A stretch of 18,287 nt of DNA, taken from NCBI GenBank assembly GCA_965263355.1, contig CBDHHL010000015.1, positions 1 to 18,287 on the forward strand, read 5' to 3'. The notes below the pieces were generated by a model that did no database searches, was not told where the DNA came from, and saw nothing but the letters and a program-made list of their open reading frames with translations. Position numbers and translations under genes: made by a program. Each line of letters begins with the position of its first letter. The stretch's first letter is position 1. The stretch is from Leptolyngbyaceae cyanobacterium (GTDB lineage: Bacteria > Cyanobacteriota > Cyanobacteriia > Phormidesmidales > Phormidesmidaceae). This document shows, piece after piece, positions 6,246-17,979 of this stretch.

Positions 6246-6731
6246 CTATGCTGCTACTGCTTGACGATTGCGGACGGGTTTACGAGTCCAGCGGATGCAT
6301 GGACGGCCTGTGTATTTATCTGGGAATAGCTCCACCACAGAACCCTTAACCAGGTTGCGGGCAAAGCTAGTGGGTGTCAGCACCTCATACACTTCATCGT
6401 CCGACTCGACAGTGACAGTGACCTCGTTGTGGCTGCCAGACACACGCCATGATGTGCGACGGTGGACGTAGGCAGGCTTAACGTCGTCTGCAATGTGTGC
6501 GACGGTGGCAATAGCGACTTCTGGCTTAGGAGACAAATCGCGATTAGCTTCTGCCTTGCAGTGGTCCAAGCTGCCAACCGCTACGACTGCTTGGCCATAA
6601 GGGTTATACTCCCAACGCATGGCCGTAATGTTGAAGGCGATAGTGCCGACGTTCTCAGTGCCACGATAAATGACGTATTGGGAATCTGATGTTTGACGGA
6701 ATTGAAGTTCAGTTTTTGCTAGAGTTTGCAT
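6246..6731 (-). CDS. Hypothetical protein; N-terminal domain paralogous to 12081-12422
   Basis: Start at MQTL. Shares FRQT...G.I.FN.TAMRWEY.PYGQ.V.A.GSL..CKA.A with 12081-12422. Confidence 0.75.
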   Translation of the reverse strand: MQTLAKTELQFRQTSDSQYVIYRGTENVGTIAFNITAMRWEYNPYGQAVVAVGSLDHCKAEANRDLSPKPEVAIATVAHIADDVKPAYVHRRTSWRVSGSHNEVTVTVESDDEVYEVLTPTSFARNLVKGSVVELFPDKYTGRPCIRWTRKPVRNRQAVAA

Positions 6732-6809
6732 AGTTCGAATGTGACTAGTTTGGACTAATGGGCTCATTGCAAACTTTGGACGGTGGGCAATGAGCCTTTG
6801 TTATGGAAT

Positions 6810-10404: not shown

Positions 10405-10457
10405 CACAAAACTCCGTGAAACCCCCATCTTCGTTCAAGTGGGGGAGGAAAGGAGAG

Positions 10458-11582
10458 TCAGGCTGCTACGCTCGATGCGTTGCTGACTGACAATCTCTGT
10501 GGGCAATTAACCAGCAACCCCGTAGAACGATAGAGAAGCTGGACTTTAGACGCGGTAAATTGGGCGATTCGCTTCCAGTTGAAATCAGACACCGACACCT
10601 TATTTTTTGTATCCCCAGACACCCAACCGATTGATTGGATGCCTTTCTTTTCAGCAATAACCAAATCGCCTTTTCTAAACCCGTGACGAGTCACAGTGCC
10701 CCCATACTTCCGCCTTAATCCACCCTTAGCGGGCACCATTAAATGGAGTTGACGACGGCTTACGGGTGGCCGATGAACGACTACAAAGTGAGCTGACGTG
10801 ATATTGACCGAGCCAAACCAGTCAGCACCTCTTGAGTCATTGCTGTGATATTTGCGATATTCCACAAACTCACTGGCTGCTAAAGCTATGCCGTCAACGG
10901 CATGAGATTGGGGGGATTGCTCCGCTTTGTTCTTAGACTTTTCTAAGCCCAAATGATCTCTCATGGTGGCAGTCTGCCACCCGTAAAGAGTGCGGACAGG
11001 TGCAAGCTTTTCCAATTGAGCGATGGCCCATTTTTGCCCAACCTGTACCGGGCTGAACGAGCAACCTTTCTTAGTTCGAGCTTTAACGTATTCAAAGACG
11101 ATTCTTGAAACAGGGAATAGCTTGCAAAGCTCAGTTACTACCCTAAGTTCAAGTTGGCGATTAGCCCGAATACTGGGAGGCACTTTTGTTTGCTTACGGT
11201 TGTCAAACCGCTTTTGACGATGTGCCCGCAATTCAAAAGGCAAACTACGGTTAATGCGCCTACCACGCCTGCCACGTCGCATCATTGCCCGTGACTCCAT
11301 CCGATCTTTTGCCCGCTTGAAGGGTAAGAGTAGATGAGCTGTGAACAATGTTGCTTTAGCAGACTGACAGGCTACGCCGGAGAATAATTTTCCCGGATCG
11401 ATACCGACCGCTATTGGCTGGGTAGCTCTACCTGATGGTTCGGATACTAGCCTGACAGCTTTGATCCGAAGGTCGGTCTTAACCCAAACTGCTTTACCTT
11501 GCTCTACCCACTTTTTAGCTCTGGCGAGCTTAGTGGGCATTGCTGGTGAACCGTCTGGGTTGAGTGTTGGAATTCTGAACAT
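10458..11582 (-). CDS. isrB: IsrB RNA-guided nickase (RRXRR family, 374 aa)
   Basis: PLMP-like start MFRIPTLNPDGSPAMPT, RuvC-I GIDPG, Arg-rich bridge helix RRGRRGRR, RuvC-II VFEYV, RuvC-III HAVDG; no HNH between RuvC-II and III. Confidence 0.88.
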   Translation of the reverse strand: MFRIPTLNPDGSPAMPTKLARAKKWVEQGKAVWVKTDLRIKAVRLVSEPSGRATQPIAVGIDPGKLFSGVACQSAKATLFTAHLLLPFKRAKDRMESRAMMRRGRRGRRINRSLPFELRAHRQKRFDNRKQTKVPPSIRANRQLELRVVTELCKLFPVSRIVFEYVKARTKKGCSFSPVQVGQKWAIAQLEKLAPVRTLYGWQTATMRDHLGLEKSKNKAEQSPQSHAVDGIALAASEFVEYRKYHSNDSRGADWFGSVNITSAHFVVVHRPPVSRRQLHLMVPAKGGLRRKYGGTVTRHGFRKGDLVIAEKKGIQSIGWVSGDTKNKVSVSDFNWKRIAQFTASKVQLLYRSTGLLVNCPQRLSVSNASSVAA

Positions 11583-11800
11583 AGTTGGTTGAGAGATAAT
11601 CTCAGTTACTACAGGTCTCTTAAGCCACAAGATTGCAGATGTCTAGCCGTTAGCTACGCCTCAGTAAAAAGGCTTACAGGAGTCCAAAGTAGAGAAGCCT
11701 TTGGAAGTGTTAACCGCAATCTTGCTCAATGGCCTATTCGCAGTTACGCCAGTCTTACTCCTGGCACTCCCCCATCCTCTTTAAGGTGGGGGTCATTGAA
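11583..11800 (-). ncRNA. Omega-RNA (HEARO-like) scaffold of IsrB element 1; guide expected from ~11801-11820
   Basis: Lies between the left end and the ATG. Stems CAAGATTGCGG/CTGCAATCTTG and TCCAAAG/CTTTGGA; motifs shared with the second copy. Confidence 0.8.
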
Positions 11801-11833: not shown

Positions 11834-12094
11834 TTACAATTCCTTTTTTAATTCTTCAATAAATTCCCTAACACCCTGCTCATTCCTGGTGTAATTAACG
11901 AAACTTGCCCGTCTTACACCAGTCACAAGACCCGCAGCTTCTAACTGCTTCAAATGCCTAGAAGCCGTAGGATGATGCACCCCTAACGCGATCGCAACCT
12001 CGCCGCTAGTGAGCACGCTTTCTCTTTTCAGCACTTGCATAACCTCCAGTCGGCCAGGGTTAGCAAGCGCTGAAAGACAATCATGTACGCTCAT
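11834..12094 (-). CDS. ArsR/SmtB-family winged-HTH regulator
   Basis: LSALANPGRLEVMQVL...TSGEVAIALGVHHPTASRHLKQLEAAGLV...Y. Confidence 0.9.
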   Translation of the reverse strand: MSVHDCLSALANPGRLEVMQVLKRESVLTSGEVAIALGVHHPTASRHLKQLEAAGLVTGVRRASFVNYTRNEQGVREFIEELKKEL

Positions 12095-12422
12095 TTTCCG
12101 TTTTTAGGCAAGTAACAGAGAGTTTCCCAACATATAAACCGCTGTGTTTTCGACGCTTTGACGGCTCGATAAAGACTTCAGCGATATCCCCAGACTGATA
12201 ACCGTTAATAGGTCTTAGCGGATAGTTTGGATGCTGTTTATTCTCGGCAATGGCTGCAGCTTTGCAATCCTCCAGGGAGCCTGTTGCTGCAACTGGCTGG
12301 CCATATGGCGAATACTCCCAGCGCATAGCTGTGAGATTGAATCCGATGTGGCCCAGTTTCTCTGCCTCGTTCAGGACAATCCATTGAGTGCTGTGAGTTT
12401 GGCGAAATGTTATGGTGGTCAT
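12081..12422 (-). CDS. Hypothetical protein; N-terminal domain paralogous to 6246-6731
   Basis: Start at MTTITFRQT; shares the TAMRWEY.PYGQ block. Confidence 0.7.
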   Translation of the reverse strand: MTTITFRQTHSTQWIVLNEAEKLGHIGFNLTAMRWEYSPYGQPVAATGSLEDCKAAAIAENKQHPNYPLRPINGYQSGDIAEVFIEPSKRRKHSGLYVGKLSVTCLKTENERT

Positions 12423-12847
12423 AAGGCTAAATAATTGTGGGATCTTCTCCCAAGCATTGCTGTAAAGTTTGCCTCGAAACTGTTGGGAAAGGTTGATAGA
12501 CAAGAGACACAGGCTTATAAACCGTTCGTCTATACTGTTTAATCTCAAGTCCTCAGAGCTACAAACTGGCGGTCATTCGCAGGTGAGTCGCATTAAAGCG
12601 TCACTTTCTCAACGTGGATACTTAAACCCTTGCTTTCGCAACTTCAGTCATTTCTGAAGATTCTGCACGTTACTTCCCTGCTAAGCAGGTTTGACTACAT
12701 CTGTACGGATTTGTCTAGGTTTTTAGTAACGGTTCCAGTTAAGTTCTATGCAGCCCTGGTAAACTTCACCTGGCAGATAAATAGACCAGGAGTCGATGCC
12801 TATCTTAGTGAAAGTCATTTTCCATTTTTGGAAAGTGTTCAATTCCA

Positions 12848-12878: not shown

Positions 12879-13232
12879 CTAAATTGCCGCAAACTGTTGA
12901 ATTGATTGATTAATCTGCTCTCGCTTCTGCCAAAGGCTGCCTAGCCTTTTGGACTGTTTTTTCTCTAGCCAAACACCATGCTCAAGATAGTAGCTAATTT
13001 CATGAGCCTTTAGCCCTCTATGGGCCAAAATCTTTTCTAATGCCTGAAAAGAAAAGTCGTCTAGTTGCTTAACATAATTGCCAGAACGCCAAGCCGCAAT
13101 TGTTTGATGACTTGCTAGTCCATCGCAGCGATCGCTTAGGTCTCGAACCGTTGCATCAATTCCAGCTGCTTTAAGTATCTTTTTCGATAGCAGCTCTGAT
13201 AATCTTTGTTTATATTGCGTTGATGCTCTCAT
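12879..13232 (-). CDS. Putative HTH DNA-binding protein
   Basis: TVRDLSDRCDGLASHQTIAAWRSG resembles an XRE-type HTH. Confidence 0.55.
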   Translation of the reverse strand: MRASTQYKQRLSELLSKKILKAAGIDATVRDLSDRCDGLASHQTIAAWRSGNYVKQLDDFSFQALEKILAHRGLKAHEISYYLEHGVWLEKKQSKRLGSLWQKREQINQSIQQFAAI

Positions 13233-13242
13233 GGCCGTTAAA

Positions 13243-14097
13243 CTATGAAACTAAAACTTTCAGGCTAATCATTTCGATGGGGGGAAGTGCCCCTAGTGAC
13301 AGCATGCCCTGCTTACATTCATGAGCAAGGCTCAAGTCAGGCTTACTTGCTAAATTTACTCCTCTGTAAATAGTATTTACAGATTCCTTTGATTCTAGGA
13401 TATCAAATTGTTTGGGCGGTCGCAGTAAATCAATTAAGTATTTTGCTGAACCATCGCTTAAGTTATCGGCTTTATCGCCGACTGCTATCTTCCATCGCCA
13501 AACGTCATCACATCTAAATGATTGATAGCTAGGCAATGCCCACCATTTCTGACGTTTCTTAGATTGCTGGTTCCATTTGCTGCAAAGCCAATTAAATATC
13601 TCTTCTCGACTTCGAACGCGTGGAGGGTGGTTGCGAGTATTTAACCAAAAAATATCAGGGTTTTGGACTAACCCATGCCAGTCACTATCAACGGTAGCCA
13701 AATAGATTTGATCGATCAATCCTGAGCTGCTATCTAGCCATAGCCGAACAATAGCAGCGGCTACGTCGTCGGCTTCTTGTGATTTTATATCAATCAAAGA
13801 AGCACTGCTGCTTAATATGCCCTCCATTGCAGTATGAAATGATGCGGGTTTAGGTTTGCGGCCTGCTTTGTAATCGGGGAATAGCTGATTACGCCAGTAG
13901 GGCTTAGAGTCAATTGCCCAAACGCATTTAGCAGTTGATTGCAACGTAGGAATCCAGCTTAGTGAATTAACCCATTCTGCCGCCATGTAGGCGTAAACTT
14001 TAGCGTTAGTTTCAGTTAGGCCTGCCTTGTCAATCTGTGCCGACATTTGGAAGGCGATCACAGACGTATCAACAATAATTAGGTTGTTCACTATCAC
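13243..14097 (-). CDS. 5'-3' exonuclease / flap endonuclease (T4 RNase H / T5 D15 / PolI N-terminal family)
   Basis: Motifs IIVDTS, WAIDSKPYWR...YKAGRK, EADD, TVDSDW and GDKADNL. Confidence 0.9.
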   Translation of the reverse strand: MIVNNLIIVDTSVIAFQMSAQIDKAGLTETNAKVYAYMAAEWVNSLSWIPTLQSTAKCVWAIDSKPYWRNQLFPDYKAGRKPKPASFHTAMEGILSSSASLIDIKSQEADDVAAAIVRLWLDSSSGLIDQIYLATVDSDWHGLVQNPDIFWLNTRNHPPRVRSREEIFNWLCSKWNQQSKKRQKWWALPSYQSFRCDDVWRWKIAVGDKADNLSDGSAKYLIDLLRPPKQFDILESKESVNTIYRGVNLASKPDLSLAHECKQGMLSLGALPPIEMISLKVLVS

Positions 14098-14173: not shown

Positions 14174-15712
14174 TCAATCAGCCATCAATTTGTAAACTAA
14201 ACTTTGAGCTTTAGCGATGCATTCTTGAAATTCTTTTTCCTGAGCAGAGTCGACGGCGTACCACAATGTTTCTAGCCCTGGGATTGCAAGAAACCCGTCA
14301 ATTTCGTACTCTTCACAAAAACAGTCAATCAGGCAGATCATGACATGCATAGCATCGGTTAATGGTCTTAATTGCAGCCAATCAGCCTTAGCTTTTTTGT
14401 TGGCTTTCACTGGCTCAGGGGGCTTAGCAAAATGCGTTTTAATGTTCGGCTGGCTGGCTAATGTCTTAGCTAATGCATTCCCTGGGATAATCGGCATCGG
14501 AACCCTAGCTTCAAACAGCATGTAACTAGTGGTCGGCTGATCACTAACTCCAGTAATTAAAAATTGCCGAATCATCCAGTGATGACTCCAGATGGTGCTT
14601 TTGGGCATCCCTGATACATCGTGAGCAGGGTTAAAGCCCATATTGGTCATGCCGTTAACGCTGTATCCATCGCGAAATGTACGCAAATGTGATTTGCCCC
14701 AATTGACTAGAGCAATATCATTAGAATCTCGTTTGCTAGGCTTAATTTTTTTGGCTTTTTCGTATTCAGTTTCTATATACGAAACAAGTTCTTGCCAATC
14801 ACCAACCGGATATCTAAGCCCAGTCGTTGCCGCCATGCCATACAAAATTACTGGACTGGGGCAATAGATATTCGCAACCAGTGGCCATAGTTCTTGAAAC
14901 AATCGAAGGGTTATCCAGACATCTTGAGCACAATATTCAAACAGCGTCTGTGGCCCTTCCCCTCCAACTGTTTTCAGAATCTCAATTCCCAGTACGTCAC
15001 TAGCTAAGCTGGCCAGATCCATGTCGGATGCCTGAGTTACCCAATCGGGAGCAGGCTTACCATTAGCGATCGCAACCTTGTACTTCTCATACTGCGATCG
15101 CTGTTCTTTATGCACACCTCTGACAAGCATTGCCAGGGCCATCACATCTATAAATAGACAACGCTCTGGTCCATACTCTGCATAAGAACTACTAAGAAAT
15201 TGCGAATCATGGGCAGCGCCATTCTGAGTGATCACGATGCAGCCAGTTGGAAACGGGATAGTGCGCCGCTTAGTTTCCGTCCAACGATACATTGGATTTT
15301 GCTCTTGCCATGCATACCAGTAACCATCGGCCCCATAGCAAATGCATAGGCAAGGCAACCATGCGTCTATATCAGCGTTTGCCGTGAATGCTTGCAATTC
15401 AATGGATTCAACATCGAGAACCATGGTTGCAGGCAGGTCATCAGGGGAAATGCATTGCCAGCTGCCCTCATCAAGACGAGCCCAACCACTACCGCCCACC
15501 TGGTCAAATGTCGGGATAAATTCAACTGGGAATCGCTCAACTTGCACATTATTTAATAGGGGGGTTAATTCAACTGCGATGTCATGCCATAAGTCCCCAA
15601 CCATTCCTTCTAGCCAAGCTCGCCACTCGGCACCCGTGGCCCCCTCCTTAGGATATGGATAAGAGCTGAACTTTGGTTCTGTTACTGGTCTAGTAATTGT
15701 TGTTGTTGACAT
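14174..15712 (-). CDS. DNA polymerase gamma-like protein: intact DEDDy 3'-5' exonuclease, reduced and degenerate polymerase region
   Basis: ExoI VLDVE (D100, E102), ExoII QNGAAHD (D169), ExoIII YCAQDVW (Y260, D264), plus PolG-like segments CPSPVILYGM...YPVGDW and DAMHVM...EEYEIDG. Confidence 0.8.
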   Translation of the reverse strand: MSTTTITRPVTEPKFSSYPYPKEGATGAEWRAWLEGMVGDLWHDIAVELTPLLNNVQVERFPVEFIPTFDQVGGSGWARLDEGSWQCISPDDLPATMVLDVESIELQAFTANADIDAWLPCLCICYGADGYWYAWQEQNPMYRWTETKRRTIPFPTGCIVITQNGAAHDSQFLSSSYAEYGPERCLFIDVMALAMLVRGVHKEQRSQYEKYKVAIANGKPAPDWVTQASDMDLASLASDVLGIEILKTVGGEGPQTLFEYCAQDVWITLRLFQELWPLVANIYCPSPVILYGMAATTGLRYPVGDWQELVSYIETEYEKAKKIKPSKRDSNDIALVNWGKSHLRTFRDGYSVNGMTNMGFNPAHDVSGMPKSTIWSHHWMIRQFLITGVSDQPTTSYMLFEARVPMPIIPGNALAKTLASQPNIKTHFAKPPEPVKANKKAKADWLQLRPLTDAMHVMICLIDCFCEEYEIDGFLAIPGLETLWYAVDSAQEKEFQECIAKAQSLVYKLMAD

Positions 15713-15854
15713 GATTTATTAGTTTGTTCGAATTAGATAATAATCACAGCGGCATAGGCTAGCGTCTAAGCCTGGGATGATGGCATTTGGCGAAGTAGTG
15801 CATTTGGTTTTAGAACGACGGGTTAACGGCAGTTCTAATTAGTAAGGCATGGTT
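15677..15854. repeat. Direct repeat copy 1 (internally deleted) of 16301-16669
   Basis: 15677-15734 matches 16301-16358 (1 mismatch); 15733-15854 matches 16548-16669 ungapped; about 190 bp are missing between the blocks. Confidence 0.92.
15719..15850 (-). pseudogene. Decayed duplicate of 16306-16665
   Basis: Reads MPY*LELPLTRRSKTKCTTSPNAIIPGLDASLCRCDY: stop at codon 4 and an internal deletion. Confidence 0.8.
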
Positions 15855-16336
15855 TACGTCCAAATTATTTTATTGACCTCATCCTGCAAGCCATTTTGAA
15901 GTTTGATGTTTTCTTGTGCATACAAAGCTTGAATCCTCTCATAGGCTTCATTGATATCTTCAAAAGTAGACCCATTTGAAACTAAGTAAAAAAGATCAAC
16001 ACAGAAATAGCCAAGTGCGTTAATTTGCTTGCTAGACAATCTCCATTTAGTAGATGCTCGAAGAATACTTTTTGCTCGATTAAGGTAGTACAGTTCAAAA
16101 TATTCTTTATTAACCTGTTCTGCGCAATAAACGCCAAACTTGGCGAGCTGGATTATTTGCTCATGGCTCTTATTGCTTAATAGCCATGAGCAAATAACAT
16201 TAGGGTTGCTTACAGGCCAAGAAACAATATATGGGTTGAAAATATCTTCCAAGCTTTGTTCTAGACAATGATCGGCCATGTCGCCCATTGGTTTAACTCC
16301 TTCTGTTACTGGTCTAGTAATTGTTGTTGTTGACAT
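15854..16336 (-). CDS. Hypothetical protein carrying the duplicated MSTTTITRPVTE start (own start may be MGDMAD at 16288)
   Basis: First 12 codons are identical to those of the Pol-gamma-like gene; a second RBS (AAGGAG) precedes MGDMAD. Confidence 0.65.
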   Translation of the reverse strand: MSTTTITRPVTEGVKPMGDMADHCLEQSLEDIFNPYIVSWPVSNPNVICSWLLSNKSHEQIIQLAKFGVYCAEQVNKEYFELYYLNRAKSILRASTKWRLSSKQINALGYFCVDLFYLVSNGSTFEDINEAYERIQALYAQENIKLQNGLQDEVNKIIWT

Positions 16337-16669
16337 GATTTATTAGTTTGTTTGAATTTTTGACCGGCCCATTGTGCGTGTTTACGTTTCGCATTCTGAG
16401 CCTTTGTTTCTTTTGTATCGTCGTCGTGAGCAACACCAACGGTTTGACGACGGTATACCTCAATTAAGTAGGGGATTTTATGCTTTTTCTTATTGAGGCA
16501 GTCAAGCCGTTGATCCTCATCTACCCACCAAATGCCATCAGAACGAGTTAGGCAATAATCACAGCGACATAAGCTAGCGTCTAAGCCTGGGATGATGGCA
16601 TCCGATGGGGCAGTACATTTGGTTTTAGAACGACGGGTTAAGGGTAGTTCTAATTGGTGAGGCATGGTT
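16301..16669. repeat. Direct repeat copy 2 (full length)
   Basis: Counterpart of 15677-15854. Confidence 0.92.
16306..16665 (-). CDS. Hypothetical Cys-containing protein
   Basis: 119 aa with CRCDYC motif. Confidence 0.6.
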   Translation of the reverse strand: MPHQLELPLTRRSKTKCTAPSDAIIPGLDASLCRCDYCLTRSDGIWWVDEDQRLDCLNKKKHKIPYLIEVYRRQTVGVAHDDDTKETKAQNAKRKHAQWAGQKFKQTNKSCQQQQLLDQ

Positions 16670-16816: not shown

Positions 16817-17596
16817 TCAAGCTACACATAATTTATTAGACCTCCGAATCAATGTTGTTTGCTTAAGTCCAAACTGGCCTAAACGCTTCCAGTTATGGTC
16901 ATAGACAGAAACTTTTTTACTCTTAGCTGTTTGGGTGTAGCCGCCAATCCAACCAGTAATCACAGTCCCTTTAGTTTTGACTTTAACCTTGTCCCCAGCT
17001 CGATACCCAAATGGGGTAACAGTCCCTCCTTTACGCTTGCGCTTACCACCCTTCTCAGCATTATCGAAATGTAGTGCTCTGCGAAAATAAGCAGGTCTAG
17101 TAATGACTCTGAACTGAGCTGGTGTAATATCTACCGCTCCAATCCATGTTCTTAAATCGGATTTACTCCCAGGGATAAGGCCAAACCTGGTGAACTGGCT
17201 AGCAGCTAAAGATACGCCATCTACAGCATGAGCTTCAGGTGTTTGAGCTTTCTTATCCTTAGTTTTGGTTAATCCTAGATGCTTGCGGATCTGGCTGGTC
17301 CCATTACAGTCTTTTTGCCATCCGTGAAGGATACGCAACAGGAGCAATAATTTTTAGTTCATCTATAGCTTTGTATTGAGCTGTCATGACAGGGGCAAAG
17401 CCCTTGCCTGATCTGGACCCCTTGCGACCACTAGTTAGGTCTACATCAGCCTTTACAACTTCATAGACGAATGAGGTCATGGGGAAGATTTTGCCCATAG
17501 TTCAGAAATAACTCTAATCTCCATTTGTCGAGCTGCCCAGATCGACGGTGGGACTTTTGATTGCTTACGATTAATGAACCGCTTTTGCCTATGGGC
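16817..17596 (-). pseudogene. isrB: isrB pseudogene: 5' region lost, two frameshifts
   Basis: Three frames: AHRQKRFINRKQSKVPPSIWAARQMEIRVISEL, then KIFPMTSFVYEVVKA, then LHGWQ...HAVDGVSLA...KRKGGTVT...GWIGG. Collinear with IsrB 1; shifts near 17497 and 17330. Confidence 0.85.
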
Positions 17597-17764: not shown

Positions 17765-17979
17765 TGTGGAGATAATCCTAATTACTTAGTTGTGTGTCCC
17801 TACGACCACCGAAAGAAGCATGTCTTGTCTTTACGCAACGCCTTTGGCAAAAGGCTTAGAGATAAACTGAGCTAGGGAAATACTCAGCAGTCTGTAACAT
17901 CTTTCGGCTCATGGTCTAGTCAGAACTTAGTGCATCTTGCCAATGCAAGCCCCGTCACTTTAGTGCGGGGTCATCTGGC
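17765..17979 (-). ncRNA. Omega-RNA scaffold of IsrB element 2; guide expected from ~17980-17999
   Basis: Same motif order as omega-RNA 1 with compensatory changes; ends GGATTATCTCCACA-ATG. Confidence 0.78.

Follow-up and report, generated by a model that had tools for sequence, protein, structure and literature searches.

The Pol-gamma-like gene and its exonuclease domain

The stretch of DNA analysed here, referred to as the window, comprises the 18,287 nucleotides of contig CBDHHL010000015.1 from a Leptolyngbyaceae cyanobacterium and carries a gene for a miniaturised relative of DNA polymerase gamma (Pol gamma), P0001. The gene is an open reading frame (ORF) of 512 amino acids (aa) with an ATG start and no interruption. 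The original prediction had placed a 512-aa ORF at this position without stating its strand; the ORF is borne out and lies on the minus strand. A Cys-rich 119-aa gene lies upstream, and a 5'-3' exonuclease (FEN) gene and a 117-aa gene follow downstream. Almost certainly P0001 is a polymerase-dead derivative of Pol gamma belonging to a conserved family of short proteins, called minis below. The evident ancestor of the mini gene is a cyanophage-type Pol-gamma polymerase of family A. The features of the locus are collected in Table 1.

Table 1. Positions of the mini gene, its parts and its neighbours in the window
Feature	Position	Strand	Evidence
Cys-rich 119-aa protein of no known family, upstream	16306..16665	-	56% syntenic homolog; 4 further homologs
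Duplicated start: opening 12 codons of the mini gene and decayed 5' piece of the 119-aa gene	15677..15854	-	Repeated at 16301-16358 and 16544-16669
P0001, miniaturised Pol-gamma-like protein	14174..15712	-	Stop codon 14174-14176; PF18136; POLG best by sequence and fold
3'-5' exonuclease domain, about residues 71-300	14813..15502	-	PF18136 at residues 75-217; family profile 62-307 on the POLG exonuclease
Exo I, D100-V-E102	15407..15415	-	Asp in 13/13 and Glu in 11/13 minis having the region
Exo II, N164...H168-D169	15206..15223	-	N and D in 14/14 minis
Exo III, Y260-C-A-Q-D264	14921..14935	-	Tyr in 13/14 and Asp in 14/14 minis
Thumb stub, residues ~305-350, helices 306-321 and 330-347, invariant W338	14663..14800	-	Model, alignment
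Motif-A-like beta strand, residues 397-403, R403 in the Asp column	14504..14524	-	MAFFT alignment, model
C-terminal palm remnant, residues 437-512 (helix 439-468, hairpin 473-488, helix 489-511)	14177..14404	-	Profile positions ~400-499, model
L480-E481-T482 in the motif C His-Asp-Glu columns	14267..14275	-	POLG and family alignments
5'-3' exonuclease/FEN, 284 aa, downstream	13243..14097	-	PF02739, 1.1e-13; PHROGs exonuclease/polymerase families; 54% syntenic homolog
117-aa gene downstream of FEN	12879..13232	-	37% syntenic homolog; no Pfam or PHROGs match

The exonuclease domain of P0001 is of the Pol-gamma type. Its Pfam match to PF18136 has an E-value of 3.6e-10 and 39.9 bits against a cut-off of 26.7. 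PF01612, the domain of RNase D- and WRN-type exonucleases, scores 17.2 bits in P0001, under its cut-off of 23.6, and 30.0 bits, over the cut-off, in the 51% identical homolog P0003. The family A polymerase domain PF00476 has no Pfam match in P0001 at an E-value of 0.01.

As judged from its residues, the exonuclease site of P0001 is intact and looks alive. All five DEDDy catalytic residues (D100, E102, D169, Y260 and D264) are retained, and Exo II additionally has N164 and H168. The three motifs, which the original prediction had named, are invariant across the five closest homologs of P0001; the exceptions to the Exo I Glu among the minis are P0008, with Asp, and P0011, with Ser.

We searched all PDB chain sequences with HMMER and found human POLG to be the best solved relative of P0001 (2.1e-9), 14 of the 17 matches with E-values of at most 1 being catalytic subunits of Pol gamma. 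The FIDVMALAMLVRGV region and the EYCAQDVW...CPSPV...YPVGDW region both align to POLG (residues 252-329, 30.8 bits), so that the similarities cited earlier, that of the FIDVMALAMLVRGV region included, are reproduced in alignments to solved chains. A profile of 14 family members matches POLG with an E-value of 7e-30.

Two short segments of P0001 outside the catalytic motifs were considered as interaction sites. A clamp-binding motif at QTLF (residues 255-258) was rejected: it is off the QxxLF pattern and lies just upstream of the Exo III helix. A YPYP motif in the N-terminal tail (residues 11-17, window 15661-15682, minus strand) is invariant in the five closest homologs and degenerate further out; it may be a docking peptide.

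The lost polymerase parts and the retained core

Nucleotide addition by family A polymerases needs the carboxylates of motifs A and C and residues of the O-helix. We compared the minis with their longer relatives in a MAFFT alignment of 38 rows, made up of 14 short proteins, one 227-aa fragment, 3 mid-size and 20 long proteins. The PxGYxxVxAD strand with the motif A Asp, the motif B block (R..AK..nF...Y), NWxIQS and the motif C His-Asp pair are found in all 20 active-type relatives (745-1110 aa). The motif A Asp column of the short proteins holds R, E, Q, L, I, S, Y or T, and Asp in 0 of 15. The sequence YMLFEARV had been proposed as the motif A position of P0001; the alignment puts the PxGYxxVxAD strand there and the predicted model has a strand at the same place. 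Motif B and the entire fingers region form one single gap in all minis, as the reported absence of motif B would have it, and the model has no corresponding elements.

The motif C His-Asp pair is likewise present in 0 of the 15 short relatives. An Asp stands in the motif C Asp column of P0006 (QDE) and P0020 (ADS), and a Glu in that of five short proteins including P0001. The replacement of His-Asp-Glu by Leu-Glu-Thr, also part of the original prediction, agrees with the POLG alignment, where the three residues of P0001 fall on H1134-D1135-E1136 once the offset between chain and full-length numbering is taken into account. Intact motif A and C aspartates were thus looked for and not found: the motif A Asp and the motif C His-Asp are absent from P0001 and all 15 short relatives. 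The motif A and C carboxylates and the fingers are lost, and P0001 is therefore predicted to be polymerase-inactive. Since it lacks PF00476 as well as motifs A, B and C, cataloguing or annotating it as a DNA polymerase would be wrong.

The C-terminal end of the polymerase domain is nevertheless recognisable in sequence. Residues 440-487 of P0001 match, ungapped, the POLG stretch ending in His-Asp-Glu; this alignment, claimed earlier, scores 3.2 bits and is not significant alone. It owes its significance to the family profile, to the full-length relatives and to the fold: the stretch scores 16.6 bits against POLG with the family profile (independent E-value 0.025), and against P0013, the closest full-length relative, it reaches 4e-17 with the profile and 2e-7 with P0001 alone. 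The best named phage matches of P0013, also the closest active relative, are Mic1, S-CBWM1, S-TIM5-like phages and A-HIS2 at 25-31% identity.

The hidden Markov model (HMM) of the 14 proteins shows which parts are shared with the long proteins. It matches them at positions 1-303, which cover the exonuclease and a short piece after it, and a second time at about 400-499, where their polymerase domain comes to its C-terminal end; the second stretch is significant alone in P0013 (4e-17), P0018 (9e-14) and P0023 (3e-16). Positions ~304-400 have no HMMER match in the long proteins. In the short proteins about 85 residues separate the exonuclease domain from the motif-A-like strand, against some 260 in P0013. 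The sole invariant column of the whole 38-row alignment is W338. The earlier description of P0001 as keeping only a palm scaffold is therefore right about the palm remnant and wrong about "only", as an N-terminal helix and a two-helix thumb stub with W338 are kept too. The mean pairwise identity of 12 short proteins is 38.5% in the exonuclease domain, the most conserved part, and 23-29% in the other regions; the polymerase remnant is faster-evolving yet clearly constrained.

The structure of P0001 was predicted by AlphaFold2 without templates, with the 38-row alignment as input. The model has a mean pLDDT (predicted local distance difference test) of 91.9 and a pTM (predicted template modelling score) of 0.92, and pLDDT falls below 50 at residues 1-10 only. 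Behind the exonuclease it has the two helices of the thumb stub, small strands, the motif-A-like strand, a long helix and a final helix. The turn of the beta hairpin 473-477/482-488 is P-G-L-E, where the motif C His-Asp would sit. The labels thumb stub and palm come from sequence alignment, secondary structure and aligned ranges, not from coordinates.

The closest structural relatives of the model are Pol gamma itself, and not the unrelated DEDD nucleases that had been named as a possible outcome. The best 34 Foldseek rows are all Pol gamma, from 7.9e-18 and with query-normalised TM scores up to 0.74. VIA-align superposes 463 of the 512 residues on human POLG with Z 36.0 and a root mean square deviation (rmsd) of 5.5 (model 1-512 on POLG 115-1166), and 450 residues on another POLG conformer with rmsd 3.1. 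Its top 35 rows are again all Pol gamma (Z 20-36); yeast Mip1 scores Z 24, and the large fragments of Pol I-type enzymes score Z 16-17. In the model the exonuclease, the thumb stub and the palm halves, as the retained parts, are arranged as in real Pol gamma. Residues 305-512 searched against the Protein Atlas gave a best score of 0.89, below the counting level.

A family of short proteins and its relatives

P0001 is one member of a family of proteins of the same length. A word-indexed search found four relatives of 493-517 aa with identities of 98, 51, 49 and 42%. When 1.84 billion representatives were searched exhaustively with a profile, 310 proteins had E-values of at most 1e-3, 30 of them at most 1e-30. 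The best hits to align along their entire length are all short, namely P0003, P0005-P0008, P0010-P0012, P0014 and P0020 (469-525 aa), and P0009 is a 376-aa piece cut at its N-terminus. Below these short hits follow proteins of 726-1333 aa, which match the P0001 family in two separate stretches. Among 25 hits scanned for PF00476, the domain is present in 0/10 proteins of at most 536 aa and in 12/15 of at least 726 aa, the exceptions being P0015, P0022 and P0029.

The mini gene could be a decaying pseudogene, the product of a recent deletion or an assembly artefact. Its surroundings are indeed in flux, with a duplicated start, an inserted 160-aa ORF, IscB-type elements and a truncated copy. Against this, twelve intact homologs with identities down to 28% (28-52%), from different samples and sources, all have 469-525 aa and the same architecture, where a recent deletion would have left close homologs of full length; they lie on one branch, the whole chain folds confidently and a 98% identical copy exists elsewhere. 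The same-length homologs on one branch rule this reading out, and we leave it hardly any probability.

A single origin of the short form is the simplest reading. A FastTree of the exonuclease domain with 131 hits puts 11 of the 12 short proteins together inside a group of long relatives, with the long-branched P0014 elsewhere. In an IQ-TREE quick search with 42 rows all 12 short proteins lie on one side of a branch with an SH-aLRT of 98. In both trees the label "active" was assumed for rows outside the 38-row alignment.

Loss of the motif A Asp, motif B and the motif C His-Asp is also seen in three mid-size proteins from cyanobacterial MAGs and metagenomes, P0022, P0029 and P0035 (726-769 aa), whose exonuclease motifs are intact; PF00476 is absent in P0022 and P0029. 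They keep about 230 more residues between the exonuclease domain and the palm than the minis and form their own branch (SH-aLRT 100). This branch stands beside the minis in the FastTree (support 88) and with the active relatives in the IQ-TREE (92). The trees thus disagree on its place, and either one or two independent inactivations may have occurred. It is possible that the mid-size dead proteins are intermediates of the shrinkage or, alternatively, a second independent inactivation.

The mini family is rare. Among 401 genomes sampled from the phylum of the metagenome-assembled genome (MAG) that carries a related prophage (see below), there is one match at 1e-10, in that MAG itself. A tblastn search of P0001 against phage and plasmid collections gave no match at 1e-3, a scan of viral contigs gave no relative of P0001, and a scan of metagenome contigs gave a single weak locus with 32% identity over 76 residues. 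The sequencing-run look-up for the P0001 gene returned three runs of one study, with no RNA run listed. All members that bear a name are cyanobacterial: P0003 and P0022/P0170 are recorded as hypothetical proteins in MAGs of cyanobacteria, and a 1.44-Mb contig of Leptothoe sp. encodes the active relative P0023 under the name "DNA polymerase".

Phage neighbourhood and proposed role

The mini gene belongs to an ordered cassette that is shared with a prophage. BLASTP of the window ORFs found nine genes common to the window and a 122-kb contig of a cyanobacterial MAG, which has chromosomal genes at both ends and a prophage of roughly 85 kb between them. The cassette common to both loci consists, in order, of the 119-aa gene (56% identity), the mini gene (51%), the FEN gene (54%) and the 117-aa gene (37%). 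In the window the FEN gene begins 76 bases after the mini gene; in the related prophage the 119-aa gene is directly upstream of the mini gene and overlaps it. The replication genes of the prophage are a D5-type primase-helicase (DUF3854, D5_N, DUF5906), an SF1 helicase and the mini cassette. Its other genes include DNA methylases, an integrase-like gene, small and large terminase, portal, a P22-type coat protein, lysozyme and an M15 peptidase. A 120-aa ORF of the prophage (10447-10809, plus strand) has an Acb2/Tad1 hairpin domain (1.5e-6) and is a candidate anti-defence sponge. We also predicted the complex of the mini family with the upstream 119-aa protein; the score was 0.00, was obtained without controls and speaks neither for nor against binding.

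Cyanophages with Pol gamma carry FEN, helicase and primase genes beside the polymerase, according to PMC7156551. The partners of the mini gene are the same, and the gene therefore sits where the lytic cousins have a working Pol gamma gene.

Neither Pfam (103 ORFs of at least 110 aa, E-value 1e-5) nor PHROGs (30 ORFs of that contig without Pfam assignment) detected a further DNA polymerase in the prophage contig. A phmmer search with 7 full-length Pol-gamma-like queries against all ORFs of at least 60 aa of the contig and the window returned the two mini genes only. PF00476 has no match in the related MAG genome, not even in a host Pol I, which says little as the MAG is incomplete.

These searches bear on the hypothesis of a split or trans-complemented polymerase, in which another gene provides the tip of the thumb and the fingers, or an intron or intein interrupts the gene as in Mic1. 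There are precedents: the Pol gamma of Mic1 is encoded in two ORFs around an intron (PMC7156551), and some T7-like polymerases have separate genes for exonuclease and polymerase (PMC10201439). The mini ORF is however continuous from the exonuclease domain through the C-terminal palm, the catalytic carboxylates within the retained palm are themselves replaced, and the polymerase part of the 7 relatives finds no matching ORF in either the 18-kb window or the 122-kb contig. We regard a split polymerase as very improbable.

Our preferred reading is a polymerase-dead mini Pol gamma that acts as a stand-alone 3'-5' exonuclease, with the remnant core as its DNA platform, in a temperate-cyanophage module; taken as a whole, this is somewhat probable. 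The stand-alone exonuclease or accessory subunit put forward in the original prediction is likewise a hypothesis. When family A polymerases edit, the duplex stays on the thumb and palm, and a few melted 3' nucleotides enter the exonuclease site. Probably unable to polymerise, the mini protein would hold the duplex of a primer-template or flap junction on its thumb stub and dead palm, and the 3' end could enter the exonuclease site only. Its substrates, trimmed alongside FEN, would be primer ends that are frayed or mismatched, or 3' flaps, the setting being a replication/repair module with the primase-helicase and the SF1 helicase. A different polymerase would carry out DNA synthesis, and the most likely one is the host replicase, on which temperate phages usually rely. 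We speculate, with considerable doubt, that the phage's own replicative Pol gamma became a polymerase-less proofreader that edits in trans at primer ends of the host replicase or on the primase-helicase. If so, it would be a phage-encoded functional analogue of the epsilon subunit that stems from a family A polymerase.

Several points weigh against the exonuclease reading. The state of the exonuclease site is read from sequence alone. DNA binding by the palm and thumb stub is assumed by analogy with family A polymerases, and the C-terminal half is not basic (net charge -2, pI 6.3). The placement of motif A comes from a single MAFFT alignment, in a region rich in indels, and motif C is placed more securely. 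The alignment given to AlphaFold2 included full-length Pol-gamma-like rows, which may favour a Pol-gamma-like arrangement. The genomic context consists of two loci only, the window and one MAG contig, several large ORFs of the prophage carry no family assignment, and the window ends about 2.6 kb upstream of the mini gene, so that a polymerase elsewhere in the replicon is possible. Finally, in the lineage of P0011, a 3-member cluster, the Glu of Exo I, the His of Exo II and the Tyr of Exo III are gone while the architecture is complete (P0011 has 525 aa and comes from a JGI metagenome, on a contig of up to 124835 bases), and a nuclease-independent role in at least that lineage would therefore follow.

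The P0011 lineage, with its fold-defining sequence complete, is also the first argument for the main rival, a mainly non-catalytic scaffold. Here the dead core would organise the phage replisome by binding, for example, the primase-helicase, the host polymerase or the clamp, comparable to the inactivated polymerase half of Pol epsilon, and the exonuclease would play a minor part or be unneeded. In favour of this, the remnants of palm and thumb are conserved, confidently folded and catalytically dead; the low-confidence N-terminal tail could dock on a partner through its YPYP motif, which does not vary among the five closest homologs; and family B offers examples of inactivated polymerase modules that serve structurally (PMC2669801). 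On the other hand, the exonuclease residues are retained in 11-14 of 13-14 lineages over deep divergence, the domain that bears them is the most conserved one, and no partner of the mini protein has been identified. The scaffold seems unlikely to us as the main role.

An alternative hypothesis could be that the mini protein is a 3'-5' exonuclease working outside replication, in recombination or end processing with FEN, in degradation of host DNA or in counter-defence. It adjoins a 5'-3' exonuclease/FEN gene in syntenic order, the phage is temperate with the Acb2/Tad1 counter-defence-like gene nearby in the relative, and no polymerase to proofread for was detected in the element. However, the mini gene takes the place of the Pol gamma gene in the primase-helicase/helicase/FEN module, and a kept duplex-binding core fits primer-template ends better than bulk degradation. 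We find a role outside replication improbable.

Compared with Pol gamma (human POLG, yeast Mip1) and the cyanophage enzymes of A-HIS1/2, S-TIM5, S-CBWM1 and Mic1, the minis have the same PF18136, fold, domain arrangement and gene company of FEN, helicase and primase. They differ in being about half the size or less, in having no fingers or motif B, a thumb stub only and no spacer domain, and in the replaced motif A Asp and motif C His-Asp and the missing PF00476. The mid-size P0022, P0029 and P0035 are alike in their intact exonuclease motifs and lost motifs A, B and C, and unlike in size and in forming their own branch. Stand-alone DnaQ-like or DEDDy exonucleases of the PF01612 type (RNase D, WRN), relatives of the Pol I proofreading domain, share the DEDDy set and are likewise without a working polymerase. 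RNase D- and WRN-type proteins combine the nuclease domain with other accessory domains and are not known to have a polymerase remnant, whereas the minis retain about 200 conserved residues of thumb and palm.

Similar logic is found in other reduced or inactivated polymerases. Solo 5'-3' exonuclease paralogs of Pol I are also a family A nuclease domain without polymerase activity (PMC12926913), but they represent the other nuclease domain, have no palm remnant and are cellular rather than of a prophage. The C-terminal half of Pol epsilon in family B (PMC2669801) and ImuB in family Y (PMC12926913) kept the fold after the loss of catalysis, presumably for binding or scaffolding. These belong to other polymerase families than the minis, and the exonuclease of the dead Pol epsilon module is inactivated too, unlike that of the minis, which looks alive in sequence. 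A survey of family A places Pol gamma and a few cyanophage enzymes in one cluster (PMC10201439). The passages of PMC12926913 consulted cover 5'-3' exonucleases that stand alone and polymerases whose proofreading domains are dead, and no polymerase-dead family A form with a live proofreader. Nor did we find a description of such a form in the full-text literature searched, supplements and subscription papers lying outside its scope, in line with the earlier statement that none was known.

The mini family may extend what is known of dead polymerases. In families B and Y, dead homologs of polymerases have taken on new functions, with no family A case in the literature searched; if the speculation on a proofreader acting in trans is true, the minis would be the first family A pseudo-polymerase, with the mid-size dead forms as possible intermediates. 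They represent a replicative family A polymerase reduced to an exonuclease and a catalytically empty thumb/palm core and afterwards maintained by selection. As a natural minimal construct, they could separate the contribution of palm and thumb to editing from that to synthesis, and they offer a test case for the shift of a phage from self-replication to dependence on the host polymerase. The family adds prokaryotic and viral diversity around the mitochondrial polymerase lineage. There is also a risk in annotation, as the exonuclease domain by itself will probably earn mini genes the name "DNA polymerase gamma".

The region just upstream of the mini gene contains a further ORF and repeats. The first 12 codons of the mini gene and its ribosome-binding region are repeated, with 98% identity, at the start of a 160-aa ORF (15854-16336, minus strand), which has no known family and no counterpart in the related prophage. 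The space from this ORF to the mini gene holds a second, decayed version of the 119-aa gene's 5' part (87%), which contains an early stop and has lost about 185 nt by deletion. By these sequences, a gene seems to have entered between the 119-aa and mini genes, and the junction to have been duplicated in the process.

The window also carries traces of IscB-type elements. Rfam at gathering thresholds and a tRNA scan gave no match in the window; the gathering score of HEARO (omega-RNA) is 83, and all HEARO matches in the window are lower. One weak match of 29 bits (11609-11800, minus strand) precedes the gene of a 390-aa RRXRR protein of the IscB/IsrB type (10458-11630, minus strand; PF14239, 3.7e-41). 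Two further sub-threshold matches lie on the minus strand, one of 64 bits at 12462-12695, with no nuclease ORF after it, and one of 34 bits at 17789-17979. A second RRXRR protein is a 176-aa C-terminal fragment (16817-17347, minus strand). Two paralogous ORFs on the minus strand, 6246-6767 and 12081-12548, share the core ...TAMRWEY.PYGQ..., have a homolog in the related prophage (28%) and match no family. Translation of the latter probably starts some 42 codons further on, at an internal Met that lies shortly downstream of the 64-bit HEARO-like match.

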